DNA of 60,258 nt from Patescibacteria group bacterium (GTDB lineage Bacteria > Patescibacteriota > Minisyncoccia > UBA6257 > GWB1-50-10), in NCBI GenBank assembly GCA_023474215.1, contig JAMCYI010000004.1, forward strand, positions 1 to 60,258, given 5' to 3'. The position numbers were made by a program, and so were the translations under genes. Positions 6,845 to 43,378 of this stretch are shown here, in pieces; the first letter of the stretch is position 1, and the number at the start of each line of letters is the position of its first letter. Under the pieces are notes generated by a model. That model was not told the DNA's origin and made no database searches. It worked only from the letters and a program-made list of their open reading frames with translations.

Positions 6845-6932
6845 ATTTTGAATTATAGAATTTTGAATTTCGATTGAATTCGAGAATTCATAAATTAAAT
6901 AATTCATTCGAAATTAAATCATTCGAAATTTA
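6845..6932. repeat. Inverted heptamer-repeat element, copy A1 (AATTTTG/TTCGAAA flavour)
   Basis: aattttgaatttcgattgaattcgagaattcataaattaaataattcattcgaaattaaatcattcgaaatt; nearly identical to 8830-8908. Confidence 0.8.
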
Positions 6933-8216
6933 AACTATCTTTTTGATTCTTCGGATTACCTCATCTATCTCTTTTCTCGTTGTTGTAATGCCGAAGCTGA
7001 ACCGGACGCTCCCCCGCACGCGCTCTTCGGGAAACCCCAGGGCATGGAGAACATGCGACGGCGTGAACGCCCGGGCCGAACAGGCCGAACCGGCCGAAGC
7101 CGCGATCCCCGCTTGATCGAGCTGTACCAAAAAATCGCCGGTGAATTCGCTCGGGAAATAAACGTTCAGGATATGCGGCGCATCGGCATTCCCGTTGATC
7201 TCCGCTTTTTTATACGCAGCCTTGAGCTTCTTCCAAAAATAATTTTTGGCATCCCCGACATACTTTGCGTTTTTGTTCCGCGACGCATAGGCGAGTTCCA
7301 CCGCCTTTCCGAAGCCGGCGACCGCGGGCGTGTTCTCCGTGCCAGAACGAAAACCGAACTCTTGGCCGCCACCCGTCACCTGCGGTGACAGAAATTTCGA
7401 ATTTTGAATTTCGAATTTTGAATTTACGTACAAGGCGCCGACGCCTTTCGGGCCGTACACTTTTTGGCCGGAGAGGGTCATAAGGTCGACGCCGAGTTTT
7501 TCGACATCGCAATCGAGGTACATCAACGCCTGCGCAGCGTCGGTATGAAAGAGCGGGTAGGAGGAGAAACTTGCCTCACGAAAAGACGGGGTCTCACTCG
7601 GCCAGCGACTCGTTCGCCCCTTGGCTCTCGCCCTCGCTCTCTCGCTTCGCTCGAACCCTGCCCGCTCGGACTCCGAGACACTTTTCTTAGAGACAAGTTT
7701 CTCCTCCTTAAATTTTTCTATGACGCTTGAGATTTTTTTAATTGGCTGGATGGTACCGATTTCGTTGTTCACATACATCACGGAGACGAGGATGGTTCGT
7801 TCATCGAGCGCTTCTTCCAATTTTTTGAGATCGACGACCCCCTTTTTGTCGACTGGGAGGACGACGACCTCGACGCCGTCACGTTCAAGCTCATGGGCGG
7901 TATCGAGAACCGATTCGTGTTCGATAGCCGAAACGATTACCTTGGGGGTTGGTCCTCCGTACCCTCGCACGATCCCGCGGAGCGCTAGGTTATTCGCTTC
8001 CGTTGCGGACCCGGTAAAAATGACTTCGCGGAATTCGGCGCCGATCGAGCGGGCAAACACCTCGCGAGCGGCATCCACGGCGGCCATCGCTTCTTGGCCG
8101 AATGAGTGGAGCGAACCCGGGTTGCCGTATTTCTCGGAAAAATACGGCAGCATTGTTTTTAAAGCCTCCGGACGGACTGGAGTTGATGCCGCATAATCTA
8201 AATAAATCTTTTTCAT
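6930..8216 (-). CDS. iscS: Cysteine desulfurase (IscS/NifS-type) carrying two repeat-derived in-frame insertions
   Basis: YLDYAAST, GNPGSLH, FTGSATEANN, HTDAAQ, SGQKVYGPKGVG, RSGTEN, AGSAC. Start placed at MKKIY (8216); the track starts at 8231. Confidence 0.9.
   Translation of the reverse strand: MKKIYLDYAASTPVRPEALKTMLPYFSEKYGNPGSLHSFGQEAMAAVDAAREVFARSIGAEFREVIFTGSATEANNLALRGIVRGYGGPTPKVIVSAIEHESVLDTAHELERDGVEVVVLPVDKKGVVDLKKLEEALDERTILVSVMYVNNEIGTIQPIKKISSVIEKFKEEKLVSKKSVSESERAGFERSERARARAKGRTSRWPSETPSFREASFSSYPLFHTDAAQALMYLDCDVEKLGVDLMTLSGQKVYGPKGVGALYVNSKFEIQNSKFLSPQVTGGGQEFGFRSGTENTPAVAGFGKAVELAYASRNKNAKYVGDAKNYFWKKLKAAYKKAEINGNADAPHILNVYFPSEFTGDFLVQLDQAGIAASAGSACSARAFTPSHVLHALGFPEERVRGSVRFSFGITTTRKEIDEVIRRIKKIV
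7391..7425. repeat. Heptamer-repeat tract in frame within iscS
   Basis: gaaatttcgaattttgaatttcgaattttgaattt encodes NSKFEIQNSKF. Confidence 0.75.
7559..7708. mobile_element. Palindromic miniature element inserted in frame in iscS (150 bp)
   Basis: Perfect 15-bp inverted ends aggaggagaaacttg / caagtttctcctcct. Core ctcgccctcgctc...gcccgctcggactccgagac is shared with 20089, 34208 and 42156. Confidence 0.75.
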
Positions 8217-8228
8217 GGTTTCAAGTAT

Positions 8229-8362
8229 CAAACAAAAACCTAAATCCTAAGCACTAAATTCTAAACAATATCCAAATCCAAAATCATAATGACCGAAACG
8301 TGTTTGGTATTTGGCGCTTTGAGCTTTATTTAGGATTTAGGATTTGGAATTTAGGATTTCGT
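8229..8362. repeat. Inverted heptamer-repeat element (CTAAATC/GATTTAG flavour)
   Basis: cctaaatcctaagcactaaattctaaac ... tttaggatttaggatttggaatttaggatt, between the mgtC-family stop and iscS. Confidence 0.8.
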
Positions 8363-15032: not shown

Positions 15033-15053
15033 CGCGACCCTTAAAAACCGAAT

Positions 15054-15328
15054 GCCGTGGTAGCTCAGTGGTAGAGCATTCGCCTGAACTCTTCGGGCAC
15101 CGATTCAGCAATGAGCCGGAAAAAACTGGGTGAATTCGGGGAAACTTCGCAAGAACAATCCCGAGCCAAGCCCCAACAAGAAGGTTGGGGAAGGTGTAGA
15201 GACTATCCCTTCGGGGAGTACCTCGATGTAAATCGGGGGAAGCGCCCAGCTCCGCAGAAGCGGATGATGATATAGTCCAACTTCGCAGGAAGAGCGATTG
15301 GTCGGGGGTTCGATTCCCTCCCGCGGCA
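15054..15328 (+). tRNA. tRNA-Phe(GAA) split by a group I intron (exons 15054-15085 and 15289-15328)
   Basis: Joined exons: GCCGTGG TA GCTC AGTGGTA GAGC A TTCGC CT|GAA GA GCGAT TGGTC GGGGG TTCGATT CCCTC CCGCGGC A. Confidence 0.88.
15086..15288 (+). mobile_element. ORF-less group I self-splicing intron (203 nt, IC3-like)
   Basis: P AATTCGGGGAAAC, Q AATCCCGAGC, R GTAGAGACTA, S GATATAGTCC. P1 GCCU/GGGC with U.G at the 5' splice site, P10 ctcttc/gaagag, terminal omega-G. Confidence 0.88.
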
Positions 15329-15329
15329 C

Positions 15330-15368
15330 AAATTCGAAATGCGTCCTTGGTGGACGCGTTTTGAATTT
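15330..15368 (+). terminator. Hairpin/terminator after tRNA-Phe
   Basis: aaattcgaaa-tgcgtcc-ttggt-ggacgcg-ttttgaattt. Confidence 0.55.
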
Positions 15369-15403
15369 TATATCCCCGGGAATCAAATGAGGGTGAGTTT
15401 GTT

Positions 15404-16522
15404 TTATTGCTGGGGAGCAGAGGAAGTCGAAAGAAAGGGCGTCGGGTCGTACGAGTTCGCGGGATTCCACGCCATCCACGTATCGCCGTAGCCGGCATCG
15501 CGAACGGCGCTTATTTCGTCATCCACCATCGTCGCGTCGTACGGCGGCACGCCGAGCGTGAAATCCTGGATCCACGGCCGGACGATCACGGTCGAACTTG
15601 CAGGCATCAGTTTTTTGCCGTCTTCGAGCGTCTGGTAAACGACTTGGTACGGCTCTTCGGCGGGATTTGGAAAACCGAAATTGCCGGGCGTATAGAGCGA
15701 GGGGTAAACCATGGGATCGATGACATTAAAATATTTCGCGGCTTCCGCGACATGCTGGCCGATCCCCAACCCGCTATCCTTCACAAAACTGTACGCAAAG
15801 AGATCGGCCGAAAGGACAGCTTTGGGATATGCATCGCGGATGTGCGACGTAAGGTAGCTGAAGAACTGGTCGATGATGCCGGACATGGAAGACATGCCGT
15901 CGTAGACCGGATAGACGGCCGATTGAATGCTCCCCGAAGGAAAACGAATGTAATCGAAATTCACTTCGTCGAAGCCGAGCTTCAAAGCTCCGATGGCAGC
16001 CGCGACATTCGCGTCCCACACCAAATGGCTTGCGGGGTCGACCCAATATGAGGGTCCGCCGCTCGCCGACCACAACCCCCCCGACGTATCGCGGAGCGCA
16101 AGCTCGGGGTGTTCTTTCGCCATCGCATTGTCTTGAAAGACAACGATGCGGGCGATGGTATAGATGCCGTTTTGATGGAATTCATCGACGACGCGTTTCA
16201 TGCCGGGCCCCACATACGTTCCGTCGCCGTCCTTCACGTTGATCACAACGGCATTCAATCGCGTGGACTTAACGAGCCGAATCATCGCGCGGACATTCGA
16301 GGGAACGGAAACCGTCGCTGCGGTAAGATACACCGCGCGAACGTCGGAAGGCGATATGCCGACGGTCGAAGTTTCGGCGACAGGCGGCGTGCTCGTCGAT
16401 GCGGCGGGCGCCGACGCCCCTTCCGGCACGGGCGACGAGGGTGCAGCGCTCCGGAAACCAAAAACAACAAGAGCGATGCTTGCAATAAGTACTGCGAAAT
16501 TTACCCAGGAATCTTTTTTCAT
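15404..16522 (-). CDS. Putative glycoside hydrolase (DUF4015-like TIM barrel), membrane-anchored
   Basis: RAVYLT, VVI.VKDGDG, ARIVVFQD, GFDEVNFDYIRFP, PMVYPS, VRPWIQDF. The track start (16612) lies inside tRNA-Arg, so ATG 16522 is used. Confidence 0.75.
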   Translation of the reverse strand: MKKDSWVNFAVLIASIALVVFGFRSAAPSSPVPEGASAPAASTSTPPVAETSTVGISPSDVRAVYLTAATVSVPSNVRAMIRLVKSTRLNAVVINVKDGDGTYVGPGMKRVVDEFHQNGIYTIARIVVFQDNAMAKEHPELALRDTSGGLWSASGGPSYWVDPASHLVWDANVAAAIGALKLGFDEVNFDYIRFPSGSIQSAVYPVYDGMSSMSGIIDQFFSYLTSHIRDAYPKAVLSADLFAYSFVKDSGLGIGQHVAEAAKYFNVIDPMVYPSLYTPGNFGFPNPAEEPYQVVYQTLEDGKKLMPASSTVIVRPWIQDFTLGVPPYDATMVDDEISAVRDAGYGDTWMAWNPANSYDPTPFLSTSSAPQQ

Positions 16523-16582
16523 GCAGGAACTCAGTTCAATTCCGATTATCGGAGACTTTCTGCCAAAAACTAGCTCATCATG

Positions 16583-16654
16583 TCCCCTCGGTAGGAATCG
16601 AACCCACATCAAAGCCTTAGAAGAGCTCTGCTCTATCCATTGAGCTACGAGGGG
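16583..16654 (-). tRNA. tRNA-Arg(TCT)
   Basis: CCCCTCG TA GCTC AATGGATA GAGC A GAGCT CT TCT AA GGCTT TGAT GTGGG TTCGATT CCTAC CGAGGGG A. Confidence 0.95.
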
Positions 16655-16724
16655 AATTGAAGCCTCTTAGGGCTTGAAATCTGTTTTACAATATACCCAC
16701 TTTTGCCTAGAATGTAAATGAATT

Positions 16725-16795
16725 CGGGGCGTAGTGTAACGGTAGCACGAGTCCTTTGGGAGGATTTAGTTCCAGTTCAAATCTGGGCGCCCCGA
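16725..16795 (+). tRNA. tRNA-Pro(TGG)
   Basis: CGGGGCG TA GTGT AACGGTA GCAC G AGTCC TT TGG GA GGATT TAGT TCCAG TTCAAAT CTGGG CGCCCCG A. Confidence 0.93.
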
Positions 16796-16819
16796 CAAAA
16801 CATATTCACCTTATCTGTG

Positions 16820-16944
16820 CCCAGATTTGAACTGGGAAGGGGTCGGGAAACCGAGAGGTTTCCCGCAGTGGAAACACTAAAACCGCAAGGTGTTAGGGAG
16901 CAAGCGTCAGCGAGCGACGTTCAACTCTGGGCGCCCCGACAAAA
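16820..16944 (+). mobile_element. tRNA-anchored miniature element (Pro copy)
   Basis: Antisense T-arm cccagatttgaactgg, core gaaggggtcgggaaac...tttcccg...aaaaccgcaaggtgttagggagc, then gcgacg and a 3' tRNA copy ttcaactctgggcgccccgacaaaa. Confidence 0.8.
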
Positions 16945-16947
16945 TTT

Positions 16948-18504
16948 TTACATCTCTTCCAAAAGTTCCGGAAGCAGACTTTGGCCGGTCATCTCTTTCG
17001 GTTTCGGTATCCGCAGAAGATCGAGGGCCGTCGGCGCAACGTCGGAGAGCATACCAATGACGGGAAGCGGCGTCAAAACCGGCGTCGGCGTTCGCTTCTT
17101 GAATTGCTTTCCCACCAAATAGAACGGCACGGGACTCGGATCGTGCTTGGTTTCCGGTTCCCCGGTTTTCAGATCCAAAAGCACCTCCGCGTTCCCGTGA
17201 TCCGACGTCACCATGACCACGTGCCCCAAAGGCAAAGAAGTTCCGATGAGCCGCTTCAATTCGTCGTCGATGACCGTCACGGCGGCCTTGGTCGCCTCGT
17301 AGTTGCCGGTATGCGCGACCATGTCGGCGTTCGCATAATTCACCAAAATGAAATCAAATGTTCCTTCCCCCAAGGCAGCGATGACGCGATCGGTGATCGG
17401 GTGCGCCATCATCTCCGGATGATCGTCGTGATGAATGATGCCTTGCGACGGAATGAGGACGCGGTACTCGTTGGGAAACGGCGGCTCGCGAAGGCCGTTG
17501 AAAAAATAGGTGACGTGCGCGTATTTTTCCGTCTCCGCGACCCGAAGCTGCATTTTTCCCGCCTCGGCGAGCACTTCACCCAATGTTTTCTGCACCAAGG
17601 CATCGGGGAAAGCGACGGGCACCTGGAACGACCGGTCGTAGTTCGTCATGGTCGCAAGATAGAGATGCTCGAACGTTTTCACCCTGAAGTTTTTGAAATT
17701 CGGATCGGCAAAAGCCCCCACGATCTGCCGCATTCGATCTTCGCGGAAATTGAAGAAAATGACGGCATCGTTATCCGCAATCGGATGAGGCTCCCCTACC
17801 GCCGACGGCTCCAAATATTCATCGTTGAGATTCTTATCATAGGCCCGCGCCGCAACTTCTCCCGCCGCGGCAACCGGGGCGGTTTCGCCCGTCAAAACGC
17901 GATAGACCTTTTCGGTGCGATCCCAATGCTTGTCGCGATCCATGGCATAGTACCGGCCCGAAACGCTCGCAAGCATCTTCGAAGCATCAATGCCGGTATC
18001 CCGCGACAACTGCAGAAGGAGATTGGAAAACGAACGAGGGGCGCTGTCCCGCCCGTCGGAAAAAAGATGAAGGGAAAGATTTTGAACGCCGCCGTCGCGC
18101 GCCATTTTAATGAGCGCCTCGAGATGCTTGAGCGATGCGTGGACATTCGATTCCGTCAGGAGCCCCACGAGATGCAAACGCGACTTCCGTTCATTCACCC
18201 AATCGATCGCCGACACAAGAACTTTATTTTTAATAAAGCTCCCGTCCTCCACGGCGGAAGAAATCTTCGGAAAGTGTTCCCACGGAACGCGGCCGGCCCC
18301 TATCGTCACATGCCCGACCTCGCTGTTCCCCTCTTCGTCGTACGGCAAACCGACCGACATTCCGGAGGCTTGGAGGGCTCCGCAGGGGAAATTCGACCGC
18401 ATAAAACCGATGGTTTTCGGATCCGCTTTGTAAATCGGGTTCGATTCATCGAGATTCCCGACCCCCCATCCGTCGAGAACGACCAAAACCAGCGTTTGCT
18501 TCAT
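16948..18504 (-). CDS. gpmI: 2,3-bisphosphoglycerate-independent phosphoglycerate mutase
   Basis: LVVLDGWG, GNSEVGH, DGRDSAP, GRYYAMDRD, FNFREDRMRQ, ETEKYAHVTYFFNG, NYANADMVAHTG, SDHGNAE. Start at MKQTL. Confidence 0.95.
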   Translation of the reverse strand: MKQTLVLVVLDGWGVGNLDESNPIYKADPKTIGFMRSNFPCGALQASGMSVGLPYDEEGNSEVGHVTIGAGRVPWEHFPKISSAVEDGSFIKNKVLVSAIDWVNERKSRLHLVGLLTESNVHASLKHLEALIKMARDGGVQNLSLHLFSDGRDSAPRSFSNLLLQLSRDTGIDASKMLASVSGRYYAMDRDKHWDRTEKVYRVLTGETAPVAAAGEVAARAYDKNLNDEYLEPSAVGEPHPIADNDAVIFFNFREDRMRQIVGAFADPNFKNFRVKTFEHLYLATMTNYDRSFQVPVAFPDALVQKTLGEVLAEAGKMQLRVAETEKYAHVTYFFNGLREPPFPNEYRVLIPSQGIIHHDDHPEMMAHPITDRVIAALGEGTFDFILVNYANADMVAHTGNYEATKAAVTVIDDELKRLIGTSLPLGHVVMVTSDHGNAEVLLDLKTGEPETKHDPSPVPFYLVGKQFKKRTPTPVLTPLPVIGMLSDVAPTALDLLRIPKPKEMTGQSLLPELLEEM

Positions 18505-18571
18505 CGATTCAATTCTAATATAATAGGAACCATAAAGTCGATGGACATCAAAAGAATAAATTTTTTCACCT

Positions 18572-20089
18572 ATGGAACTCATCCCCTGGATTGTGGGCAT
18601 TGTTGCAGGTTTGGCAATCGGATACGGCGTTCGGGTTTCAATCGCCAAGCGCCTTCAAAACTCACTCGAGAAAAAAGCAGAAGCGGAACTTGAATCCGCA
18701 AAGTCGGAAGCAAAAGAGATCGTCGTCGAAGCGAAGGATAAGGCCTCCTCGATCCTCGAGAACGCCAACAAGGAAGAGCGCGACCGAAAACAGGAACTCC
18801 GGCAGCTTGAAGAACGCCTCTTGAAGCGCGAGGACCTGCTCGATCAAAAACTTCGGGAACTGGACAACGGCGAAAAATCGCTGAAGTCAAAAGAGAACGA
18901 GATCAAGGAAAAGGAAAATGACGTGGAACACCTCCGCGAGCGCGCCGTCGGCGAGCTTGAAAAGGTTTCGGGGCTCACGAGGGAGGAAGCGCGGAAGGCG
19001 ATGTTCGAAGAGATCGAAACATCCGCAAAACAAGATCTCGCAACGTCGCTCGCCAAACTCGAACGCGAGCGCGAAGAAGAAATAGAAAAGAAAGCGAACG
19101 AGATCATCACGACAGCGATCCAGCGGTATTCGAGGAACGCGATCGCCGATGTGACGACCTCCGTCGTCGGACTCCCCGACGAAGACATCAAAGCGAAGAT
19201 CATCGGAAAAGAAGGGAGAAATATCCGGGCCTTCGAGCGCTTGACCGGCGTTGAGGTCATCGTGGACGAAACGCCGGAGAACGTGGTCCTTTCGTCATTC
19301 GATCCGATGCGACGCGAACTCGCCAAAATGGCGCTCGAAAAGCTCATCAAGGACGGCAGGATCCACCCCGCAAAGATCGAAGAGAAAGTCGAGGAAGCGC
19401 GCCAAGAACTCGAACAAAGGATACAAAAGATAGGAGAAGAGGCGGCATACGAAGTCGGCATTTTAGACCTTCCAAAAGAAATCGTGAATCTCCTCGGCAG
19501 ATTGAATTTCAGGACGAGCTACGGCCAAAACGTACTGCTCCACTCGGTTGAAATGGCGCACATCGCCGGCATGATGGCAACCGAACTCCACCTGAACGTC
19601 GATGTCGCAAAGAAGGGGGCCCTTCTTCACGACATCGGGAAAGCCGTCGACCATGAAGTGGAAGGAACGCACGTTGAGATCGGCAGAAAACTCTTGAAGA
19701 AGTACGGCATTGCTGAAAACGTCATCCAAGCCATGGAATCGCACCACGAAGAATACCCGTATGCGACGCCGGAATCGTACCTCGTCGCGGCAGCAGATGT
19801 CATTTCCGCGGCGCGGCCCGGCGCTCGGCGCGATACGCTCGAAAAATACATCAAGAGACTGGAAGACATCGAAAAGGCGGTCGGCAGCTTCGAAGGGGTC
19901 AAGCAATCGTATGCCGTTTCGGCAGGACGGGAAGTCAGAGTTTTCGTCGTCCCCGAGAAGATCGACGATTTTGGAGCCCTGGAACTCGCAAAGAAGATAT
20001 CCAACAAGATCCAATCGGACGTCCAATACCCCGGCGAGATCAAGGTAACCGTCATCCGTGAGGTGCGGGCGGTGGAGTACGCGAGGTAG
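18572..20089 (+). CDS. rny: Ribonuclease Y
   Basis: N-terminal TM, coiled coil, KH IIGKEGRNIR, HD motif LLHDIGKA, AAD.ISAARPGARR. Confidence 0.96.
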   Translation: MELIPWIVGIVAGLAIGYGVRVSIAKRLQNSLEKKAEAELESAKSEAKEIVVEAKDKASSILENANKEERDRKQELRQLEERLLKREDLLDQKLRELDNGEKSLKSKENEIKEKENDVEHLRERAVGELEKVSGLTREEARKAMFEEIETSAKQDLATSLAKLEREREEEIEKKANEIITTAIQRYSRNAIADVTTSVVGLPDEDIKAKIIGKEGRNIRAFERLTGVEVIVDETPENVVLSSFDPMRRELAKMALEKLIKDGRIHPAKIEEKVEEARQELEQRIQKIGEEAAYEVGILDLPKEIVNLLGRLNFRTSYGQNVLLHSVEMAHIAGMMATELHLNVDVAKKGALLHDIGKAVDHEVEGTHVEIGRKLLKKYGIAENVIQAMESHHEEYPYATPESYLVAAADVISAARPGARRDTLEKYIKRLEDIEKAVGSFEGVKQSYAVSAGREVRVFVVPEKIDDFGALELAKKISNKIQSDVQYPGEIKVTVIREVRAVEYAR

Positions 20090-20238
20090 GCGAAAAGGCT
20101 CGTTAATCCTCGAAAACACGCGCCAGTCCGCCCCAACCGGCGGACTGCGCTCGTTCTCGTCCTCGCTCGCACCCACGGGGGCGCCGTGCCCGCTCGGACT
20201 CCGAAACGGTTTTCTCGAACCAACGAGCTTTTCCCGCC
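20089..20238. mobile_element. Palindromic miniature element after rny stop
   Basis: Outer arms aaaaggctcgtt / aacgagctttt; scaffold cgaaaacacg-[gtccgcc/ggcggac]-gcgctcgttctcgtcctcgctc-[insert]-gtgcccgctcggactccgaaacggttttctcg. Confidence 0.8.
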
Positions 20239-20322
20239 GATAGTTAAATTATGTAGTAATGTAGAGGTATATTTGTTATAATGGTTTCGAAGAACGGAAA
20301 GGTCGCTAAGTAAAAAACAACC

Positions 20323-20598
20323 ATGAAAAAGGACGGATTGGTAGAAGCTGTCATCAAGGCAGCAAACACGGAAACCAAGAAACAGGCTCAAGAAGCCGTT
20401 GAAGCGGTTTTCGACGCGATCGTAAAGTCGTTATCGAGAGGAGAAGAGGTCGCGATCGCCGGATTCGGCACATTCCGCGTTGCAAAAAGAGCGGCCAGAA
20501 TGGGCGTCAACCCGAAAACCGGGGAAAAGATCCAGATCGCAGCTTCCACGAAGCCGAAATTCAGAGCCGGAAAGCTCTTGAAGGAGGCGGTCAAATAG
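20323..20598 (+). CDS. hup: HU family DNA-binding protein
   Basis: GEEVAIAGFGTFRV..RAAR.G.NPKTGEKIQIAA...PKFRAGK.LKEAV. Confidence 0.95.
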   Translation: MKKDGLVEAVIKAANTETKKQAQEAVEAVFDAIVKSLSRGEEVAIAGFGTFRVAKRAARMGVNPKTGEKIQIAASTKPKFRAGKLLKEAVK

Positions 20599-20620
20599 GA
20601 GGCTAAGGAATATTTCTTAA

Positions 20621-20648
20621 CAAAAAACTCCCCATAGGGAGTTTTTTG
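20621..20648. terminator. Bidirectional intrinsic terminator
   Basis: caaaaaactccc-cata-gggagttttttg. Confidence 0.8.
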
Positions 20649-20668
20649 TTTTATTTATTCACTTTTCT

Positions 20669-21583
20669 TTATTGCTGAAGCAATTTCCTCACTAAATTGC
20701 TTATATCAATAAAGTTTTGGTAGGCGTCTTTGATCTTACTGAGTGACTCGCCGACCAAACCTTTGATTGATACGATTTGAGGGGTGCTGGTGCTTTCTGC
20801 CGTGTCAGTGGAAGTTGCAGTTGAAGTGGAAGGTGAAGTGGACGTTGCAACCGTCTCAGTCGAGGTTGCCTCGGTCGATGTCGCTTCGGTCGAGGTTGCC
20901 GTCAAAGGCTCCACGTCGCTCTTTAAAAACAATTGATAGGCTTGATTATTGAGATCTTTCGCGCCCTTGATGTCGCTTGATGCCGCGTCGAGCATCCCGC
21001 TGATGGCTTTTTGATTCTTCGATGAGAAGTTCAGCGTGGAAAGATCGCTTTGAATATTGTTCAACCTCTTTTCGGACGTCCCAATGGCGGAAAATTCCTG
21101 CCGTACCAAGAAGAAGTCCTGCAGCTGGTTCAAGAGAGGCACATAGTTCTTATCCCTCCACGTTTTAAAATCCGACGCCATTGACTTGATGTCGTCGAGG
21201 GTCGGCGAAGAGCTTGCAAGCGCCTGGCGTTCGGAATCGTAGTAAACCAAAGCGTTCGTCAGCCCATCCAGCGAGTTCTTTACCCAAACGTTGTAATCGG
21301 CATCCTTATCAACGGTCAGGAGCTTCAGCTCGAAGTCCTTCGCCTCGGCCGTCGAAAGATCCAGCACTTGATTGAAAGCGCTGACGCGGAGCGTTACGTC
21401 GCTCACGTCGCCTGCGTCCTTTGCGGAAAGAAGATTATCGAGCGCATCCTTCGCACTTTGAAAAACTTGATTGACCGCACTCGTACTCGTGCCGCTGTCG
21501 GCGAGAACCGGCGACGCGAAGCCAAGGCCCGCAAGCCCCATAACCGCCGTCACGATCAAAATTTTCTTTGCGTATTGATACAT
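20669..21583 (-). CDS. Exported helical protein with Thr/Ser-rich repeat linker
   Basis: Signal peptide ending FASPVLA; TSTEA-TSTEA-TSTET repeats near the C-terminus. Third gene of the ECF cassette. Confidence 0.7.
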   Translation of the reverse strand: MYQYAKKILIVTAVMGLAGLGFASPVLADSGTSTSAVNQVFQSAKDALDNLLSAKDAGDVSDVTLRVSAFNQVLDLSTAEAKDFELKLLTVDKDADYNVWVKNSLDGLTNALVYYDSERQALASSSPTLDDIKSMASDFKTWRDKNYVPLLNQLQDFFLVRQEFSAIGTSEKRLNNIQSDLSTLNFSSKNQKAISGMLDAASSDIKGAKDLNNQAYQLFLKSDVEPLTATSTEATSTEATSTETVATSTSPSTSTATSTDTAESTSTPQIVSIKGLVGESLSKIKDAYQNFIDISNLVRKLLQQ

Positions 21584-30620: not shown

Positions 30621-30660
30621 AGGAGCGGTTTCATCAAAAGAACCGCTCCTACTTTTTTAT
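30621..30660. terminator. Intrinsic terminator at convergent junction with ileS
   Basis: aggagcggtt...aaccgctcct-acttttttat. Confidence 0.7.
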
Positions 30661-33600
30661 TCCGATCCAGATCGGGTCGCCGTCGAATTTCGTCTCGATC
30701 TCGACATCGAACTTGTCGGAACGCCTAAGAAGAATGTCCGAAGCGTTTATTTCTTTCATCAGGAGCTTTTTATTGCGCTCCACAATATTTTTAACCTCGG
30801 GTTGGGCTTCGACGAGAAGCGTTATCTTGTCTTTGGGGACAAACCCGCCGTCTTGGCGAAGATCTTGGATCATGCGCACGAGCTCGCGAACCGTTCCCTC
30901 TTCTTTGAGCTCCGGCGTGATCACCGTGTCGAGGACGAAATCCTCTTTTAACTTGGAGTCGAAGGTCACTTCTTTTACATTGATTTCATCCTTTAAAATT
31001 TCGAGAAGAGCCGCATCCATCTTCGATCTCGAATCCTTGACCGCGAGCGACGCGAGGGGCTGGCGTACTTTGATCCCCAATTCCGCACGCTTTGCGAGAG
31101 CAGCACTCGCGAGATCGCGCACCGTCTTCATGCCGTGTAACAATTTCGAGTTCCGAGTTTCGAGTTTTGGGCTGGTCTTAGGCCATTCCTCCAGGTGGAC
31201 CGAGAGCTCACCCTTCAAAGAGACGGACTGATAGAGCGCATCGGCGAAGAACGGCATAAAAGGAGCAAGGAGCTTGGTAAGTTCGGTAAGACAATACCGG
31301 AGCGTCGCCGACGCCGCGGCATAATCCTTCTTGTTGTCCGGCTTTTGGAGCCGCCTCCGCGAACGGCGGATATACCACCGCGAAAGGTCGTTCACGAACT
31401 CTTCAATCGACTTGCCGGCGCCGCCGATATCATACGCATCAAGGGCTTTGGTCGAAACAGCGATGGCTTCGTCGAGGCGCGCGATGACCCACCGATCGAG
31501 AACGTTCGATTTCGCGGTCGGCGCTTTATATTTGGCGCTTTTATCGGCGTACGTCCGGTAGAAAACGTACGAGTTGTACATCATGAGGATGAACTGACGG
31601 AGCACTTTCCCGAGGTCTGCTTCGTCGAAGCGCTTCGGTTCGCCCGGCGCATTCACGGTATAAAAATACCACCGGACGGTATCGGCGCCGTATTTTTGGA
31701 TCATGTCCCACGGGCTCACGGTATTTCCCTTTGACTTCGACATCTTTTGGGCGTTCTTATCGAGCAGGAGGCCCAAGGAGATCACGTTCCGGTACGGTGC
31801 TTTTTTCTTCAAGAGCGTTGCGACGGCAAGGAGCGTATAGAACCAGCCGCGCGTTTGATCGATCCCTTCAACGATGTAATCGGCGGGATACAGAAGCTTT
31901 GTCTTGTTCTCGAAAGGATAGTGGTCTTCGGCGAAGGGCATCGATCCGGAATCGAACCAAACGTCCGCGACCTCGGGAATCCGCTTCATCGTCCCGCCGC
32001 ATGTGCATTGAAAAACGGCTTCGTCGACGTACGGCTTATGGAGATCGATCTCGCCGGTATCGTTCCGGGGGATCATTTTGAGGCTGAGCTTCCGGATTTC
32101 GGCGAACGTTATAAAATCATCGCCCCGCTTTTCTTTTTCAGCGATCGCCTCGCGCTCCGTCCACCCTTCGGCAACCTGGAAAAGCATCCAAATCGGGTAC
32201 TCGTGCGTCACGAGAAGGATGTTCTTTCCTTCATACTTCAACTCGCATTCCTTGAGGAAATTCCACAAGCGCGTCCGAAGATCGCGGACCGACTCCCCTC
32301 CTTCGGGCCGCCGCTCGAATTTCGACTGAAAGGTCGGGAAAAGCACGTGGTATTTCTCATCGTGGCAGCCCATGAGGTCCGCCCCCAATTGGATCTCTTC
32401 AAGACGCTTGTCCACCTTCGCATCCGCCGTGCCCAGGATCCCAAGATCAATCTCATCGGTTTCCTTCGTCCGCAAAATATCGGACGTGATGACGACGTCG
32501 ATCTTCTTCCCTTTCCGGGCAAGCTCGTGCTTGAACTTTTTGATCGACAATTCGACTTGCCGCTTGCCACGGGCGGTCAGGTGGAATTTCGTTTTTGTCG
32601 CATCGATGATATCAAGGACGTTGTTTTCCGCTTCGCCGTGGCGCATGACCCAATAGCTGTTCTTCGGGCGGCCGAGTTTTTTTGCGAGCTCGCCGACGCC
32701 CCCTAAGACTTCGGTCCTGCCGCATTTTTTACAGACCCAAACCGGAAGCGGCGTTCCCCAATACCGTTCGCGCGAGATCGCCCAATCCTTGACATCCTTC
32801 AGCCATTCGCCGAATCTTCCGTTTTTGATGGTCGCAGGGACCCAGTTCACCGTCTTATTCGAAGCCAAAAGCTCGCGCTTCAATTTGGACATGCCGATGA
32901 ACCACGAATCGCGCGCGTAGTAAAGGATCGGCGTGCCACATCGCCAGCAAAACGGGTATTCGTGCTCGTACTTTTCGGTCTTTAAAAGGAAATTCCGCTC
33001 CTTGAGAAGTTCGAATATCTTTTCTTCGGTTTCTTTCGCCTTCACGTACATCCCCGCAAGCTCAGGGACATCGGCGGTGAATTTCCCCAACGTATCGACG
33101 GTATGATGTTTCGGCAAGCCGACCTTCGTTCCCAATTGGTAATCGTCCTCGCCGTACATGACGGCCGTATGAACGACGCCGGTCCCGTCTTCGGTCGTCA
33201 CGAAATCGGCCGGATATACCCGATACGAGCTCTCTGTTTTCAATTTTTTGACGTCGAAGAGCGGCTCATACCGCAAGCCGACGAGATCCTTGCCACTGAA
33301 AATATTGAGTATCTGGTATTTAGTATTGAGTACTTTATCTGCCAAAAGAGAAGCGATAATGTATTTTTCATCGCTCCCTTCAATACTGACTACTGTATAC
33401 TTGATACTCTCGCCAACTGCGAGGGCGACATTTCCGGGGAGCGTCCACGGCGTCGTCGTCCATGAAAGGACATAGGTATTGCCATCGGTCGTAAAGCTTC
33501 TGCCGATCGTCTGGTTCGGCAAAAGCCTGAACTTCATGTACACCGACATATCCTCGGTCGTCTTGTACCCTTGGGCGAGCTCGTGCGACGACAAGGCCGT

Positions 33601-34161
33601 CCCGCACCGCGTGCACCACGAAATCACCTTATGCCCCTGGTAGAGGAGTTTTTTCTTGTGGACCTCGGAGAAGATCCACCACAAGGTCTCCATGTAGTTC
33701 TTGTCGTACGTGATGTACGGATGATCCATGTCGAGCCAAAAGCCGATGCGCTCAGTGATCCGTTCCCACTCGTCCTTGTATTCCCATACCGACTCGCGGC
33801 ATTTTTTATTGAACGCCGCAATGCCGTATTCTTCGATCTCTTTCTTCGATCTCAACCCGAGCTTTTTTTCAACCTCGATCTCAACCGGCAGACCGTGCGT
33901 ATCCCATCCGGCCCGGCGCGGAACGGAAAATCCGGCCATTGTCCTGTACCGGAGGACGATGTCCTTGAACGAGCGCGAGAGCACATGATGGATCCCCGGA
34001 CGGCCGTTCGCCGTGGGGGGGCCTTCATAAAAAACGAACTTCTTTTTAGCTTTGTTCTTTTTGAGCGATTTCTCGAAAATGCCGTTTTCTTTCCAGAATT
34101 TCAACACCTTCTCTTCGACTTCCGGCAGGGAGAATGCGGAATTGTCCAAATTATCAAGCAT
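30649..34161 (-). CDS. ileS: Isoleucine--tRNA ligase (type 2) with inserted histidine-phosphatase domain
   Basis: FYEGPPTANG, GWDTHGLPVE, WTTTPWTLPGN, GTGVVH, DWAISRERYWGTP, KMSKSKGN; insert with MRHGEAENN. Confidence 0.95.
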   Translation of the reverse strand: MLDNLDNSAFSLPEVEEKVLKFWKENGIFEKSLKKNKAKKKFVFYEGPPTANGRPGIHHVLSRSFKDIVLRYRTMAGFSVPRRAGWDTHGLPVEIEVEKKLGLRSKKEIEEYGIAAFNKKCRESVWEYKDEWERITERIGFWLDMDHPYITYDKNYMETLWWIFSEVHKKKLLYQGHKVISWCTRCGTALSSHELAQGYKTTEDMSVYMKFRLLPNQTIGRSFTTDGNTYVLSWTTTPWTLPGNVALAVGESIKYTVVSIEGSDEKYIIASLLADKVLNTKYQILNIFSGKDLVGLRYEPLFDVKKLKTESSYRVYPADFVTTEDGTGVVHTAVMYGEDDYQLGTKVGLPKHHTVDTLGKFTADVPELAGMYVKAKETEEKIFELLKERNFLLKTEKYEHEYPFCWRCGTPILYYARDSWFIGMSKLKRELLASNKTVNWVPATIKNGRFGEWLKDVKDWAISRERYWGTPLPVWVCKKCGRTEVLGGVGELAKKLGRPKNSYWVMRHGEAENNVLDIIDATKTKFHLTARGKRQVELSIKKFKHELARKGKKIDVVITSDILRTKETDEIDLGILGTADAKVDKRLEEIQLGADLMGCHDEKYHVLFPTFQSKFERRPEGGESVRDLRTRLWNFLKECELKYEGKNILLVTHEYPIWMLFQVAEGWTEREAIAEKEKRGDDFITFAEIRKLSLKMIPRNDTGEIDLHKPYVDEAVFQCTCGGTMKRIPEVADVWFDSGSMPFAEDHYPFENKTKLLYPADYIVEGIDQTRGWFYTLLAVATLLKKKAPYRNVISLGLLLDKNAQKMSKSKGNTVSPWDMIQKYGADTVRWYFYTVNAPGEPKRFDEADLGKVLRQFILMMYNSYVFYRTYADKSAKYKAPTAKSNVLDRWVIARLDEAIAVSTKALDAYDIGGAGKSIEEFVNDLSRWYIRRSRRRLQKPDNKKDYAAASATLRYCLTELTKLLAPFMPFFADALYQSVSLKGELSVHLEEWPKTSPKLETRNSKLLHGMKTVRDLASAALAKRAELGIKVRQPLASLAVKDSRSKMDAALLEILKDEINVKEVTFDSKLKEDFVLDTVITPELKEEGTVRELVRMIQDLRQDGGFVPKDKITLLVEAQPEVKNIVERNKKLLMKEINASDILLRRSDKFDVEIETKFDGDPIWIGIKK

Positions 34162-34207: not shown

Positions 34208-34363
34208 CGGCTCTGATTTCTTCAAGAAAACCGTTGCGGAGTCCGAGCGGGCACGGTCCCAGCCAGTCCGTGGACCGGCTGGGGAGCGAGGATGAGGATG
34301 AGCACGAGCGCGCGTTTCACGCCGGGAAACGCGACGAGTGTTTGCGAGAAGAAATCAGAGCCG
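34208..34363. mobile_element. Palindromic miniature element between argS and ileS
   Basis: Perfect 16-bp arms cggctctgatttcttc / gaagaaatcagagccg; reverse-orientation scaffold aaaaccgttgcggagtccgagcgggcac...gcgagg...gagcgc...gtgtttgcg. Confidence 0.82.
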
Positions 34364-34372
34364 ATCCGTCCT

Positions 34373-35959
34373 CTACATCTCTTCCGGCGGCACAATACCC
34401 AAAAGGCGAAAGGCGTTCTCAAAAACGATGGCGGATGCGGCAACCAAGGCGAGTTTCGGCCGTTCACGCTCGCTGCCGATCACCTTTTCTTCTTCATAAA
34501 AATTGTGGAACGATTTGACGGCCCCCATGAGATACCGGGTAAGCCGATGGACTTCGTAATCCCGCGCCGACTCGGCAACAACATCGGGAAAAAAGGCAAG
34601 GCGGACCATCAGTTCGCGCTCGGCAACCGAACCCAAAGCACTGAGGTCTTGCGTCTTTGCTTTCACCGGAACGCCGGCCTTCGCGAGGATCTTTTTTGCG
34701 CGTACGAGAGCATACTCGGCATAAAACACGGGATTTTTCGACGAACGCTCCTTCGCCAAATCCAAATCGAAATCGATGTGAGAATTCGCGCCGACCGCAA
34801 GGAAGAAAAACTTCGCGACATCGACGCCGACCTCATCCACGAGATCCTCGAACGTGACGAACGTCCCTTTCCGCTTCGACATTTTGACAAACTCTTCCCC
34901 TTTCTTGATGAGAATGGCCTGCGTTATCACAACGTCCGATCTTTTGAATTTCAAGATGTCCGCGACCGCCTGGATCCGCCGCACATAGCCGTAATGGTCG
35001 GGGCCCAAAACATTGATCTTCCAGTCAAACCCCCGTTTTTTGGTCTCGAGATAGTGGCCGGCATCGACCAAAAAATATGTCGGGAGGTTATCTTTCGTAA
35101 GAAGCACCCGGTCCTTGTCGTCGCTAAAATCGGTCGTTTTGAGCCACACGGCACCGTCGCGTTCATATACCTTTCCCGACTTCCGAAGGAGCCGCAACGC
35201 CTTTTCAGGAAGTTTCTTCTTCCGAACGCTCCGTTCCGATGTATACCGATCGAAATGTATGCCGGATTTTTTTTCGATGACGTGCTTGATGCCCTCCAAA
35301 AAATCATCCGCCGCCCGCTCGCCGACGGCCTCCGGGTTTTCCCGATGCCGTTCCACGAACGCGCGGTTCCTGCCCGCCCATTCTTTGACGTATTCGCCTT
35401 GATAAAATTCTTCGGAGCTTTCGATGAATCCCAATGCGGCAAGGATCGATCTTCCGAGCGTTAAAACCTGATTGCCGCTGTCGTTCACGTAGTATTCGCG
35501 TTCGACGTCGGCACCGGCAAAAGCAAGGACATTCGAAAGCGCGGTTCCGTAAAAACCGCCGCGGCCGTTCGCAAGCGTCAGGGGTCCCGTGGGGTTTGCC
35601 GATATGAATTCGACTTGCACGCGCCCCTTGACCGACCGGGAAGAACCGTACTTCATGCCTGCTTTTATAATCTCGCCGATCTCCCTTTGAAGTGACTTCT
35701 TCGAGACCCAAAAATTAATGAAGCCGTTTTCCGAAACGCCGATCCGGTCCACCGCGTCGATCGGAGACCTCCGAAACGAATCCGCGAACTCGTTTGCCGC
35801 TTCCCGCGGAGATCTTTTTTCGGACCTTGCAAGCGCAAATGCGATGTTTGTCGCATAGTCGGCATCGGTCGCCTTTTTATCCGGAACTTCGACCGAAAAT
35901 CCGGTCTCAAGACCGGTCACCTCCTTCAGCTTTCTTTCTATTTCCTCTTTTATCGTCAT
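34373..35959 (-). CDS. argS: Arginine--tRNA ligase
   Basis: DYATNIA, GFINF, VEFISANPTGPL, EYYVNDSGNQ, YFLVDAGHY, GPDHYGY, KMSKRKG, NPVFYAEYA.VR. Start placed at MTIKEE (35959). Confidence 0.95.
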   Translation of the reverse strand: MTIKEEIERKLKEVTGLETGFSVEVPDKKATDADYATNIAFALARSEKRSPREAANEFADSFRRSPIDAVDRIGVSENGFINFWVSKKSLQREIGEIIKAGMKYGSSRSVKGRVQVEFISANPTGPLTLANGRGGFYGTALSNVLAFAGADVEREYYVNDSGNQVLTLGRSILAALGFIESSEEFYQGEYVKEWAGRNRAFVERHRENPEAVGERAADDFLEGIKHVIEKKSGIHFDRYTSERSVRKKKLPEKALRLLRKSGKVYERDGAVWLKTTDFSDDKDRVLLTKDNLPTYFLVDAGHYLETKKRGFDWKINVLGPDHYGYVRRIQAVADILKFKRSDVVITQAILIKKGEEFVKMSKRKGTFVTFEDLVDEVGVDVAKFFFLAVGANSHIDFDLDLAKERSSKNPVFYAEYALVRAKKILAKAGVPVKAKTQDLSALGSVAERELMVRLAFFPDVVAESARDYEVHRLTRYLMGAVKSFHNFYEEEKVIGSERERPKLALVAASAIVFENAFRLLGIVPPEEM

Positions 35960-36009
35960 AAATCTTATTTTTAGTATATACCAAGATGAGGTACTATGAA
36001 TACCATACG

Positions 36010-36441
36010 ATGGCCATATTTGCGGAAAACAAAAGAGCTCTCTTCGACTACGAGATCCTCGGGGCATTCGAGGCCGGCATTGTGCTGAAAGGCTACGAAG
36101 CAAAGGCCGTAACGAGCGGCCGCGTGAACCTTTCGGGATCCTACGCTTCCCTCGTGCGGGGCGAGCTTTGGATCGTGAATCTCGACATCCCGCCCTATCA
36201 GCCAAAGAATATCCCCGGCCCGTACGATCCCAAGCGGTCGAGAAAACTCCTCGTCACCAAAAGCGAACTCAATGAACTTGTCGGAAAGACGAAGGGGTTG
36301 ACACTTATTCCGATGAAGATGTATAGTAAGCGCGGCAAAATAAAGCTCGAGATCGGACTCGCAAAATCGAGGAAGAAGAAAGACAAGCGCGAGGTCATCA
36401 AGCAACGCGAAACTCAGAAAGAAATCAAACGTTTTATCTAG
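36010..36441 (+). CDS. smpB: SsrA-binding protein SmpB
   Basis: AENKRA.FDYEI...EAGIVL.GYE.K, DPKRSRKLL, KLEIGLAKSRKK.DKRE.IK.RE. Confidence 0.96.
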   Translation: MAIFAENKRALFDYEILGAFEAGIVLKGYEAKAVTSGRVNLSGSYASLVRGELWIVNLDIPPYQPKNIPGPYDPKRSRKLLVTKSELNELVGKTKGLTLIPMKMYSKRGKIKLEIGLAKSRKKKDKREVIKQRETQKEIKRFI

Positions 36442-42155: not shown

Positions 42156-42437
42156 GGGAAGCCGGCTCGCTTTTCTCAAACACGCTGTCAATCCGCCCCA
42201 GCCGGCGGATTGCGCTCGCTCTCGACCTCGCTCGGAGAGGATCGGAAAGGTTCGTGCGGCAGCTCTCGGAGGTTCAAAAGCTCGGTTCCGCCGGTGAGGC
42301 GGATTTTGAACCGAGAGCGCAGGGCGGCGCTTGCCGCCGGAGCAAGCGAACGCCCGGTGCCGGTAGGGCCTTTCCGATCCTCTCCACCATGCCCGCTCGG
42401 TCTCCGAGACGGTTTGATCAGAGCGAGCCGGCTTCCC
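42156..42437. mobile_element. Nested palindromic miniature element after murB stop (282 bp)
   Basis: 16-bp arms gggaagccggctcgct / agcgagccggcttccc; inner 17-bp arms ggagaggatcggaaagg / cctttccgatcctctcc; same scaffold as 20089 and 34208. Confidence 0.85.
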
Positions 42438-43378
42438 TATTGCACATATCGCACCTCTTCCTCAAGGAGGATGCCGAATTTCCTATGTACCTTCTTCCTT
42501 AAAATATTTGCGAGCTTCCGCACGTCGGCGGCCTTCGCGCGCCCCTTATTGACGAAGAGGTTCCCGTGGAAAGAAGCGATCTCGATACCCCCAACGCGCA
42601 TCCCCTTCGAACCGACCGACTCCAAAAGGTATCCGGCCGGTATTTTTCCATCGATGATTTTCGATCGGTCGATCCTTTCAAGGGATTTTCGCGGAACATC
42701 GGCGGCGAGGACATTCTTAAAGAAACTTCCGGGACATTTGATCCCCGGCTTGTACTTTTTCTCGCGTATCGCAATGATATGCCTCGAGATCCGTCTCAAG
42801 GCCGCCGCATTCCCCGCCTTGAATCCAAGCCGAATCCGCAAAACAAGCCACTGCCGTTCTTTAAAGACGCTTTGGCGATAAGCGAAGTTGCACTCGCGTT
42901 TCGAGATCCACCGCTTTTTTTTACCGTCCCAAATTTCAACGGACTTGACGATCTCGGCGATGGAGTGGCCGTATGCACCGGCATTTCCGACGACCGCACC
43001 ACCGACCGTTCCCGGTATCCCCGAGAGCGTCTCGAGCCCCGAAAGTCCCCGGCCGATGGATCTTTTCACAACTTCGCCGAGAAGGACGCCGCCGTCCGCC
43101 ACACACTCTTTTCCTTGAAAAGAGATTTTCCCTCCAAAAAACCGCAAAACAAGCCCCTTCAACTTTCCATCGGGAAAGACAGTGTTGCTTCCCCCCGCAA
43201 ATATCGTGAGGGGCATCTTATTTTTTTTCGCCCATTCTGCAATATCGACGAATTTCTCGGGCGTCTCGGCAATGGCAAGATACTCAGAAACTCCGCCGAT
43301 CTTGAACGTCGAAAGCGGAGCGAGTTTTGCGTCTTTTTTGATCTTAAATTGAGTGAAAACCTCCGGCCGAGTCATCAA
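42437..43378 (-). CDS. murB: UDP-N-acetylenolpyruvoylglucosamine reductase
   Basis: STFKIGG, GGSN, GLETLSGIPGTVGGAVVGNAGAYG, FAYRQS.F, GSFFKN, HGNLFVN, LEEEV. Confidence 0.95.
   Translation of the reverse strand: MMTRPEVFTQFKIKKDAKLAPLSTFKIGGVSEYLAIAETPEKFVDIAEWAKKNKMPLTIFAGGSNTVFPDGKLKGLVLRFFGGKISFQGKECVADGGVLLGEVVKRSIGRGLSGLETLSGIPGTVGGAVVGNAGAYGHSIAEIVKSVEIWDGKKKRWISKRECNFAYRQSVFKERQWLVLRIRLGFKAGNAAALRRISRHIIAIREKKYKPGIKCPGSFFKNVLAADVPRKSLERIDRSKIIDGKIPAGYLLESVGSKGMRVGGIEIASFHGNLFVNKGRAKAADVRKLANILRKKVHRKFGILLEEEVRYVQ

Follow-up and report, generated by a model that had tools for sequence, protein, structure and literature searches.

A 60,258-nt stretch of contig JAMCYI010000004.1 (assembly GCA_023474215.1, Patescibacteria group bacterium), hereafter the window, carries four copies of an apparently undescribed, very widespread family of palindromic elements found in uncultured, ultra-small bacteria. 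The elements are ~130–160 bp long, rarely ~280 bp, and their conserved strings and variable hairpins are, on the aligned copies, better seen as parts of one conserved three-way-junction fold under compensatory evolution rather than modular, swappable units. The family probably consists of small non-autonomous selfish insertion elements of the general kind represented by Rickettsia palindromic elements (RPEs), repetitive extragenic palindromic (REP) sequences, and MITEs (miniature transposable elements with inverted repeats), with an unusual build. We prefer this reading because the elements disperse with their outer arms included, because they are variously present, absent, or decayed at orthologous sites, and because one expanded variant occurs at different loci.

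An earlier reading made from the letters of the window alone (the sequence-only reading) had described four cassettes with a shared order of parts: outer arm, hairpin 1, a middle scaffold, hairpin 2, a 3′ scaffold, and outer arm. All four are present where that reading placed them, with the parts in the same order at each place; the end of copy D has since been refined, and copy B proves to lie inside a gene (Table 1). The 21-nt 3′ scaffold (TGCCCGCTCGGWCTCCGARAC) has four matches with at most one mismatch in the window, compared to 0.01 expected from the shuffled window, and the middle scaffold has four compared to 0.22, so both motifs are far above shuffle expectation. A covariance model built from 26 copies (A and B from the window and 24 from other sources) identified exactly four copies in the window: A at 84 bits (E = 6e-20), B at 81.4 bits (E = 3e-19), C at 77.8 bits (E = 2e-18), and D as two partial matches separated by its long hairpin 2. 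The proximity to stop codons noted for three copies also holds, as copy A begins at the base following the rny TAG, copy C lies 9 nt from the argS stop codon, and copy D overlaps that of murB by one base. A fifth scaffold match at 58204, with three mismatches and within the polA coding sequence, was dismissed as chance. At 13869–13978 (plus strand), across the genes for a VTT-domain protein and Pterin_4a, the covariance model gave a weak match of 13.7 bits (E = 0.12) that is probably noise.

Table 1. Copies of the element, parts of copy A, and adjoining genes in the window. For elements and their parts, the strand is that of the better-folding (R) strand; gene products are named from Pfam matches.
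Feature	Position	Strand	Remarks
Copy A, whole element	20090..20238	-	In the rny-hup spacer; covariance model
Copy A, outer arm P1, left half GCGAAAAGGCTCGTT	20090..20104		Complementary to 20222–20237
Copy A, outer arm P1, right half AACGAGCTTTTCCCGC	20222..20237		Pairs with the left half
Copy A, P2 5′ strand, CGGAG-N-CCGAGCGGGCA	20187..20207	-	3′ scaffold of the sequence-only reading; invariant across copies; N pairs with N′
Copy A, P2 3′ strand, GAGCGAGG-N′-CGAG plus P2a	20150..20168	-	Middle scaffold of the sequence-only reading; pairs with the other scaffold
Copy A, variable distal hairpin of P2	20169..20186	-	Hairpin 2 of the sequence-only reading; stem covaries
Copy A, hairpin P3	20120..20149	-	Hairpin 1 of the sequence-only reading; changes on both sides in 12 of 14 pairs
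Copy B, inside IscS/NifS-type cysteine desulfurase gene	7559..7708	-	R strand is the mRNA sense strand
Copy B host gene, cysteine desulfurase (Aminotran_5)	6930..8231	-	433-codon open reading frame
Copy C, between argS and class-I aminoacyl-tRNA synthetase gene	34208..34363	+	R strand antisense to both genes
Copy D, directly after murB stop codon	42156..42437	-	R strand in the same sense as murB
Copy D, expanded branched hairpin 2	42234..42385	-	17-bp stem plus inner domain; replaces the usual ~20-nt hairpin
RNase Y (rny)	18572..20089		Stop codon TAG at 20087–20089
HU (hup)	20323..20598
Class-I aminoacyl-tRNA synthetase	30649..34161	-
ArgRS (argS)	34373..36205	-	Stop codon at 34373–34375
MurB (murB)	42437..43378		Stop codon at 42437–42439

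The fold was derived on the strand that folds best, termed the R strand; the sequence-only reading had written out its reverse complement. That reading took the two scaffolds as fixed; they are not spacers, and RNAalifold applied to 13 copies pairs them with each other. The variable base N of CGGAG-N-CCGAG is paired with N′ of GAGG-N′-CGAG as GC in six copies, CG in three, UA in two, UG in one, and AU in one, and the pair is never broken. The long outer stem, P1, is formed by the arms, which are free in sequence, plus a GAAAAG/CUUUUC-like extension. From junction to tip, P2, the long and irregular helix made by the two scaffolds, consists of P2a (3–5 covarying pairs), a GGA:GA loop, P2b (GNCC:GGN′C), a tandem GA:GA, P2c (GC:GC), a GGGCAYGG:GA loop, and the variable hairpin. 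P3 runs from an outer stem through a bulged A to an inner stem, and its conserved C-GCU-G tip sits over a conserved U.G pair. The hairpins thus vary, as the sequence-only reading had said, but hairpin 1 is not freely swapped, since its tip and bulged A are conserved and its stem covaries.

Alignments of larger sets of copies agree with this fold. In a MAFFT alignment of 26 copies, 92.1% of the cells at helix positions are paired, compared to 70.3% in shuffles and at most 51% when partners are slid, and 24 of 32 pairs have changed on both sides. The corresponding values for 106 copies are 93.6%, 66.5%, and at most 50.5%, with changes on both sides in 30 of 32 pairs, although this alignment was fitted to the model and is biased toward it by construction. 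All of the top pairs in a mutual-information scan are helix pairs, and the scan adds two P2a pairs, the inner stem of hairpin 2, and a P1 extension; it gave no pseudoknot or tertiary covariation. The invariant positions are unpaired, purine-rich loop bases, and every helix covaries. Freedom of these helices to covary is why the arms and both hairpins vary from copy to copy. Resemblances to signal recognition particle RNA, the sarcin-ricin loop, and the K-turn were considered and dropped, either because other copies lack the similar strings or because the geometry of the motif is wrong.

One strand folds better than the other with either set of energy parameters. For copy A, the minus strand reaches −84.1 kcal/mol as RNA, compared to −64.5 for the plus strand, and −38.6 compared to −35.8 kcal/mol as DNA. 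The R strand is the more stable as RNA in 13 of 14 copies (by 2–17 kcal/mol) and with DNA parameters in all 7 copies so folded (by 3–7 kcal/mol). Helix mismatches are dominated by G.U/U.G (115 vs. 22 for A.C/C.A) and A.G/G.A (110 vs. 3 for C.U/U.C). The tip of hairpin 2 is a C-GNA-G triloop in 24 of 93 copies (C-GAA-G in 20, C-GCA-G in 4). Such triloops are unusually stable in DNA, and these caps are a hint, short of proof, that the folded form is DNA.

Copy D has a folding energy of −164 kcal/mol (z = −7.4), and its hairpin 2 is replaced by a 150-nt branched domain with conserved strings of its own (AAGCTCGGTTCCGCC and CGAGAGCGCAGGGC). The idea that this expanded hairpin is an independent element was set aside; among the matches listed, it was seen only in copy D and in L118, which are different loci. 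Copy C has an ortholog that is 98.7% identical in another genome of the same species (L036). The two differ by a 6-nt duplication (CTCATC) in the P2 3′ strand, at 34284–34302 of the window, and by two substitutions, one of which, in hairpin 2, makes a standard pair in the window and a G.U pair on the folded strand of L036. As a test of constraint on copy C, this ortholog is uninformative, as it comes from the same species and third-codon identity is 97.7%.

The sequence-only reading had proposed a search of the genome with the scaffolds; such searches of public genomes and metagenomes returned more than 130 further copies among the matches listed. Copy totals from both database scans are lower bounds and refer to those matches. 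With one genome per species, a 17-mer query gave mostly chance matches in high-GC genomes; at least ~16 of the loci listed also have the second scaffold at the correct spacing, and these belong to Patescibacteria, to bins labeled Omnitrophota, WOR-3, and Thermotogae, and to unclassified bins. A two-block pattern recovered at least 120 loci from metagenome contigs, many of them from groundwater and sediment. Overall there are at least 138 matches, comprising 124 complete copies, of which 96 are non-redundant. Six loci hold head-to-head pairs of copies 50–200 nt apart (L147:8782-9046, L178:2613-2877, L149:7898-8336, L180:546-891, L153:879-1153, and L188:202-1141); L178 is on the same contig as L008, and L147 and L178 each hold one partner of a divergent subfamily with an altered core (GTGCACTTTCGGGTTCCGAGAG).

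The labels of metagenome bins can err, and the Omnitrophota case alone was checked through a neighboring protein: the PurD encoded beside the copy at L236 matches a protein of Candidatus Omnitrophica bacterium 4484_213 with 100% identity. The family therefore spans Patescibacteria and Omnitrophota. Judged by neighboring genes, it probably extends to further phyla; other copies adjoin a TolC-like outer-membrane protein gene and a NiFe hydrogenase gene. Genes are reported to pass between groundwater Omnitrophota and Patescibacteria (PMC12455944). Collections of phages, plasmids, and viral contigs contained no copies. Rfam 15 gave no match at gathering thresholds for the window and 15 loci, and relaxing E to 10 brought up nothing but noise, at 15 bits or less. 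In the literature searched, the core string is absent, and MITE and REP elements are not linked to these phyla.

The history of copy A at the rny-hup junction can be followed in four relatives. L247 (Rny with 98% amino-acid and 72% third-codon identity) has an orthologous copy that is ~76% identical and scores 55.7 bits, compared to 84 in the window. An unrelated AT-rich palindrome occupies the same junction in L248 (Rny 91% identical; L248:11519-11686). In L249 (86%), the 3′ third of the element remains, together with another GC-rich palindrome (L249:11519-11777). The junction is empty in L250 (82%), where the spacer is just 72 nt and the stop codon is followed by AAAC and the hup promoter, with no hairpin and neither arm. 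The sequence-only reading had suggested comparing empty orthologous sites to see whether one arm was there beforehand; at this site, neither was.

The copy in L247 has kept its helices through changes of whole G:C pairs to A:T, which reach even P2c, a normally invariant pair, and its loops have mutated (GGA to GGG, GGGCA to GGACA, and GA to AA). Its divergence is about equal to that of third-codon positions. Resident copies drift at close to the neutral rate and yet keep their helices by compensated changes. This pattern fits a resident selfish insert rather than an indispensable host signal. That pairing is kept while the recognition loops decay suggests a mechanical cause, namely hairpin-templated repair or conversion, alongside or instead of selection. 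The unrelated palindromes in L248 and L249 suggest turnover at a fixed spot, and both the position following the rny stop codon and the loop of IscS that holds copy B seem to tolerate or attract palindromes.

The sequence-only reading had proposed that the arms are made, or rapidly converted, at insertion. In one genome (JAZDOK01), the copies at two loci, L040 and L088, have in common a 177-bp unit, 93.8% identical, that takes in the arms and ~15 nt beyond them, within unrelated flanks. Likewise, copies in two different genes, those for IscS (L245) and for a membrane protein (L189), are bordered by the same arms (CGRAAYCTCGCCTC). In this subfamily, to which copy B belongs, the two sets of arms are nearly alike (CGGAATCTCGCCTC and CGAAACCTCGCCTC), a few bases outside them also match, and members were found inside the IscS, TsaD, and membrane-protein genes. 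Shared arms at unlinked loci, together with the empty site in L250 that has neither arm, imply that arms move with the element. The arms are thus part of the mobile unit and included in what is copied to new sites, and the differences among the window copies reflect old divergence of subfamilies.

On the alternative account, the core inserts alone, and its arms either come from one flank, copied in inverted form at insertion, or are the stem of a hairpin that already stood at the site and served as the core's target. That arms differ among almost all copies would agree with it, as would the unrelated palindromes at the same spots in sister genomes (the IscS loop in L242 and L243, and the position after the rny stop codon in L248 and L249) and the extra module nested in hairpin 2 of copy D. 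It is difficult to square with arms and bases beyond them that are common to different loci, or with a vacant rny-hup site in L250 that has neither an arm nor a hairpin, and the differences between the arms of orthologs are compensated substitutions. We consider it very unlikely. The other part of the earlier proposal, that arms change quickly, has held up, in that they evolve fast and remain complementary both in IscS and at the rny-hup junction. Between the IscS copies of L245 and L246, the outer CGGAA/TTCCG is kept and matched changes lie inside it (TCTCGC/GCGAGA vs. GCTTTT/AAAGC); the orthologous copies L133 and L172 likewise show fast, compensated arm change.

Copy B is in-frame and free of stop codons within its host open reading frame (ORF), where it adds ~47 residues, roughly KLVSKKSVSESERAGFERSERARARAKGRTSRWPSETPSFREASFSS, directly before the conserved YPLFHTDAAQA motif. 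Public gene calls treat IscS with the insert as one 428-aa Aminotran_5 protein. IscS homologs place the organism within the Patescibacteria (candidate phyla radiation), with relatives of the Wolfebacteria/Jorgensenbacteria type. In an alignment of 25 orthologs, the loop that contains copy B has a homologous insert in P0009, P0017, P0087, and P0100, no insert in P0014, P0031, P0037, and P0043, and a different insert in the closest relatives, P0002 and P0003. The element is in the sense orientation in the window, L245, and L246, and L228, P0087, and P0100 carry it inverted; the window copy resembles that of L228 in its arms. The two orientations may come either from an in-place flip by recombination between the inverted arms or from two entries of related elements.

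The coding copies are open and in-frame in every IscS ortholog examined, despite varied hairpin lengths and both orientations, which points to translation. A small intron-like element that leaves its host gene undisturbed through removal from the RNA would be suited by a P1 that joins the two ends and by ribozyme-like conservation of the core. It would not call for the reading frame to stay open across IscS orthologs, a majority of copies are intergenic, and no intron or ribozyme family matches; we regard it as extremely improbable.

Other inserts are present in the same protein. IscS in these bacteria has unrelated in-frame inserts at at least four loop positions, at least two of which are palindromic in DNA. 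In the sister genomes represented by L242 (10001-11299) and L243 (1184-2527), a different 75-nt palindrome is found exactly at the position of copy B. In the window, a second, AT-rich repeat (AATTCAAAATTCGAAATTCAAAATTCGAAATTT, encoding NSKFEIQNSKF) is in-frame in the same gene at 7377–7436, and a similar string lies ~1.4 kb away, at about 8831–8854.

Across loci, where gene calls are ORF heuristics, ~12–15% of 109 distinct copies are within long ORFs and most are intergenic. Hosts confirmed with Pfam are Mfd (L185), TsaD (L144), a PMT_2-type glycosyltransferase (L123, near its N-terminus), and IscS (several genomes); a membrane-protein family with no Pfam match also hosts copies (L189, L194, L202, and L204). 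In the direction of the upstream gene, the element begins at most 20 nt from the stop codon in 27 of 61 cases, and the next gene start is at a median distance of 170 nt. The R strand is antisense to co-directional neighboring genes in 30 of 41 cases, and at 56 of 77 loci it is on the strand with negative GC skew. The orientation bias and closeness to stop codons could equally reflect the insertion mechanism or selection against copies that disturb promoters or place the folded strand in mRNA.

Flanks and arms were characterized in the 83 copies whose arms are clear, defined as an arm score of 11 or higher. Arms differ in nearly all of these and are shared only by close members of a subfamily. 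No target-site duplication was found: the direct repeat is 0 bp in 41 and 1 bp in 26 of the 83, and the 11 two-bp cases are mostly GA. The contrast with classic MITEs drawn by the sequence-only reading, in the lack of constant terminal repeats, is thus borne out, and the lack of a target-site duplication is a further difference. The sole flank bias is an A at position −1 before the 5′ arm (48 of 83 copies). Promoter-like −10 hexamers are not enriched on either side, and a consensus scan around copy A found no promoter. No U-run of an intrinsic terminator follows the arms. When the 1784 ORFs that lie up to 4 kb from the element in 134 loci were clustered all against all, only housekeeping families and no linked gene emerged; the neighbors include rny, argS, murB, purD, lysS, and rnc.

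These observations bear on whether the element is instead a structured or cis-acting RNA kept for its benefit to the host, such as a small RNA gene, a signal for processing or termination, or a stabilizer of 3′ untranslated regions. Helices that covary around unpaired, invariant nucleotides, with a conserved U.G pair and tandem G.A pairs, are what such an RNA would show, and a core conserved between phyla, the tight placement after stop codons, and the retention of every invariant position by copy A are in line with it. However, the better-folding strand is predominantly antisense to co-directional neighbors and has no promoter signal upstream, one IscS site holds both orientations, and copies in the coding sequence of unrelated genes are translated through. 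Moreover, orthologous copies decay or vanish while the flanking genes stay, and the neighbors have no common functional theme. A host-serving RNA is therefore unlikely.

A related possibility is a host element that acts as DNA, i.e., a cruciform or hairpin bound by a chromosomal protein and serving supercoiling, replication, or chromosome organization, much as REP sites and the bacterial interspersed mosaic elements (BIMEs) composed of them are bound by gyrase, IHF, or polymerase I. Its tolerance of either orientation and any genetic context, the correlation of orientation with GC skew, the DNA-stable GNA triloops, and a density of four copies per 60 kb would be expected of such an element. 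A site bound as duplex, or as a symmetric cruciform, needs no strand-specific purine-rich loops, and decay and loss at orthologous sites are not what a host function predicts. Insertion in the coding sequence of an essential gene is also hard to reconcile with placement by the host. We give this account little credence.

If the family is instead mobile, as we think probable, a hypothetical factor encoded elsewhere would recognize the invariant unpaired bases of the folded single strand and mobilize the element in trans. P1 would juxtapose the ends of the element for cutting and joining; bringing the ends together in this way would explain the missing target-site duplications. The intermediate would more likely be single-stranded DNA than RNA, given the GNA triloops, the link to GC skew, the absence of any promoter signal, and an element that is active in either orientation. 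Hairpin-templated repair or conversion may help to maintain the complementarity of the arms. A more speculative extension, which we regard as possible but doubtful, is that the three-way-junction core is the working part of a novel mobilization system (a structure-guided cut-and-join of single-stranded DNA or RNA, or a self-processing nucleic acid) that is shared horizontally among ultra-small groundwater bacteria of the Patescibacteria and Omnitrophota. Such a system would explain why loops are conserved across phyla around helices that are free to change, as well as the absence of a linked transposase.

Several points weigh against a mobile element. Neither the ORFs scanned in the window, nor its part read through synteny with L247, nor the stretches up to 4 kb from the element in the 134 loci contained a gene for a transposase, integrase, reverse transcriptase, HUH/Y1, RAYT, or TnpA/TnpB protein, and the mobilizer is thus purely hypothetical. 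No insertion polymorphism was seen between near-identical genomes, the same-species genome L036 having copy C as well. The conservation of the core across phyla, and the 31 of 31 invariant positions kept by copy A (compared to 26 of 31 in its L247 ortholog), could indicate a cellular role; full retention in copy A fits selection, conversion from other genomic copies, and unequal branch lengths alike. The folded strand is mostly on the strand with negative GC skew, and IS608-type single-strand transposons have the opposite sign. Finally, the tandem G.A pairs and conserved U.G give the three-way junction an appearance no less typical of RNA than of DNA.

Compared by analogy with known systems, the element appears to belong to no named family, resembling RPEs in its in-frame inserts and REP sequences in its high-copy habit following genes. 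To our knowledge, an invariant three-way-junction core with a strand-specific fold has not been described for RPEs. RPEs are palindromic, are found in-frame in housekeeping genes, where they are translated as an extra surface peptide, and also occur between genes (PMC10969869). The present family shares with them a length of ~100–150 bp, palindromic sequence, multiple copies, the lack of a known transposase, and in-frame insertion, here in IscS, TsaD, Mfd, and a membrane protein. The inserts in IscS, TsaD, and Mfd are in-frame palindromes of that size and would be translated, with homologous inserts in IscS orthologs. RPEs are, however, confined to Rickettsia, and the present family, likened to them by description only, is in Patescibacteria, Omnitrophota, and probably others, with just the minor intragenic share given above.

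REP sequences are 20–40 nt simple hairpins with a GTAG or CGTC tag (PMC3733652). Like them, and like BIMEs and REPINs, the present elements are high-copy palindromes mostly just downstream of genes, with no target-site duplication and occasional inverted pairs (the six loci above). Unlike REPs, they are 4–5 times longer (130–160 nt) and branched, have no GTAG or CGTC tag at the arm ends, and include intragenic copies. REPs are recognized as a folded single strand by a REP-associated tyrosine transposase (RAYT), a Y1 HUH enzyme encoded once per genome. Neither the window nor the fetched loci contain a RAYT gene flanked by the repeats, although a single gene elsewhere in the genome is possible.

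Bacterial MITEs such as Correia, ERIC, RUP, and the QMITEs of Coxiella can create in-frame fusions (PMC10969869), and like the present elements they are small, non-coding, multi-copy, and foldable. Here, by contrast, the conserved part is internal, with neither constant terminal inverted repeats nor a target-site duplication, and no parent insertion sequence was found in the window or the loci scanned.

The attC sites of integrons are imperfect palindromes near the stop codon of the upstream gene, and the recombinogenic folded strand is antisense to that gene. The present elements are similar in having stems that vary in sequence and keep their structure, in starting after stop codons, and in a folded strand that is mostly antisense. 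They differ in a conserved core of ~100 nt, in the absence of the R″ (RYYYAAC) and R′ (GTTRRRY) boxes at the arm ends, in having housekeeping neighbors rather than a cassette array and integrase, and in their intragenic copies. Elements of the IS200/IS605 type leave no target-site duplication, are recognized as a folded strand with G.T and other mismatches, and have an orientation linked to replication. The palindrome-associated elements of that group thus share with the present family the missing duplication, a strand-specific fold with mismatches, and an orientation bias. Unlike the present family, however, they have two separate subterminal hairpins with no long outer stem and a fixed tetranucleotide target, which was unseen here; the skew bias is opposite in sign, and neither TnpA nor TnpB turned up in the window or loci scanned.

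Other features of the window and its relatives were recorded in passing. A tRNA-Phe(GAA) gene at 15054–15329 (plus strand) has its anticodon loop split by a 203-nt group I intron (Rfam match at 15076–15299); it is missed by a plain tRNA scan and found by ARAGORN with introns allowed. The class-I aminoacyl-tRNA synthetase next to copy C (Ile/Val type, 1170 aa) has a His_Phos_1 domain at residues 504–669, inside its catalytic domain. The "23S rRNA intervening sequence protein" family (PF05635) has a gene at 949–1311 (minus strand) and another in a syntenic relative (L244:17080-17445). L249, a relative with an 804-kb contig, has an island with a relaxase and a coupling protein a few kb from rny (14734-21518), and also a bAvd and RVT_1 gene pair that resembles a diversity-generating retroelement.

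With the covariance model, the family can now be masked and annotated in genomes such as this streamlined one, where four copies of ~150 bp are carried in 60 kb and one of them sits in an essential Fe-S cluster gene. The family explains puzzling charged inserts (SVSE.ER...SETPSFRE) in IscS, TsaD, Mfd, and other proteins of these bacteria. It also offers a case study of palindromes whose pairing persists although their sequence drifts at the neutral rate. Because it occurs in Patescibacteria as well as Omnitrophota, it is a possible tracer of genetic exchange between them. The combination of invariant loops and free helices points to a specific partner, the identification of which could reveal a new transposition or nucleic-acid-processing activity.

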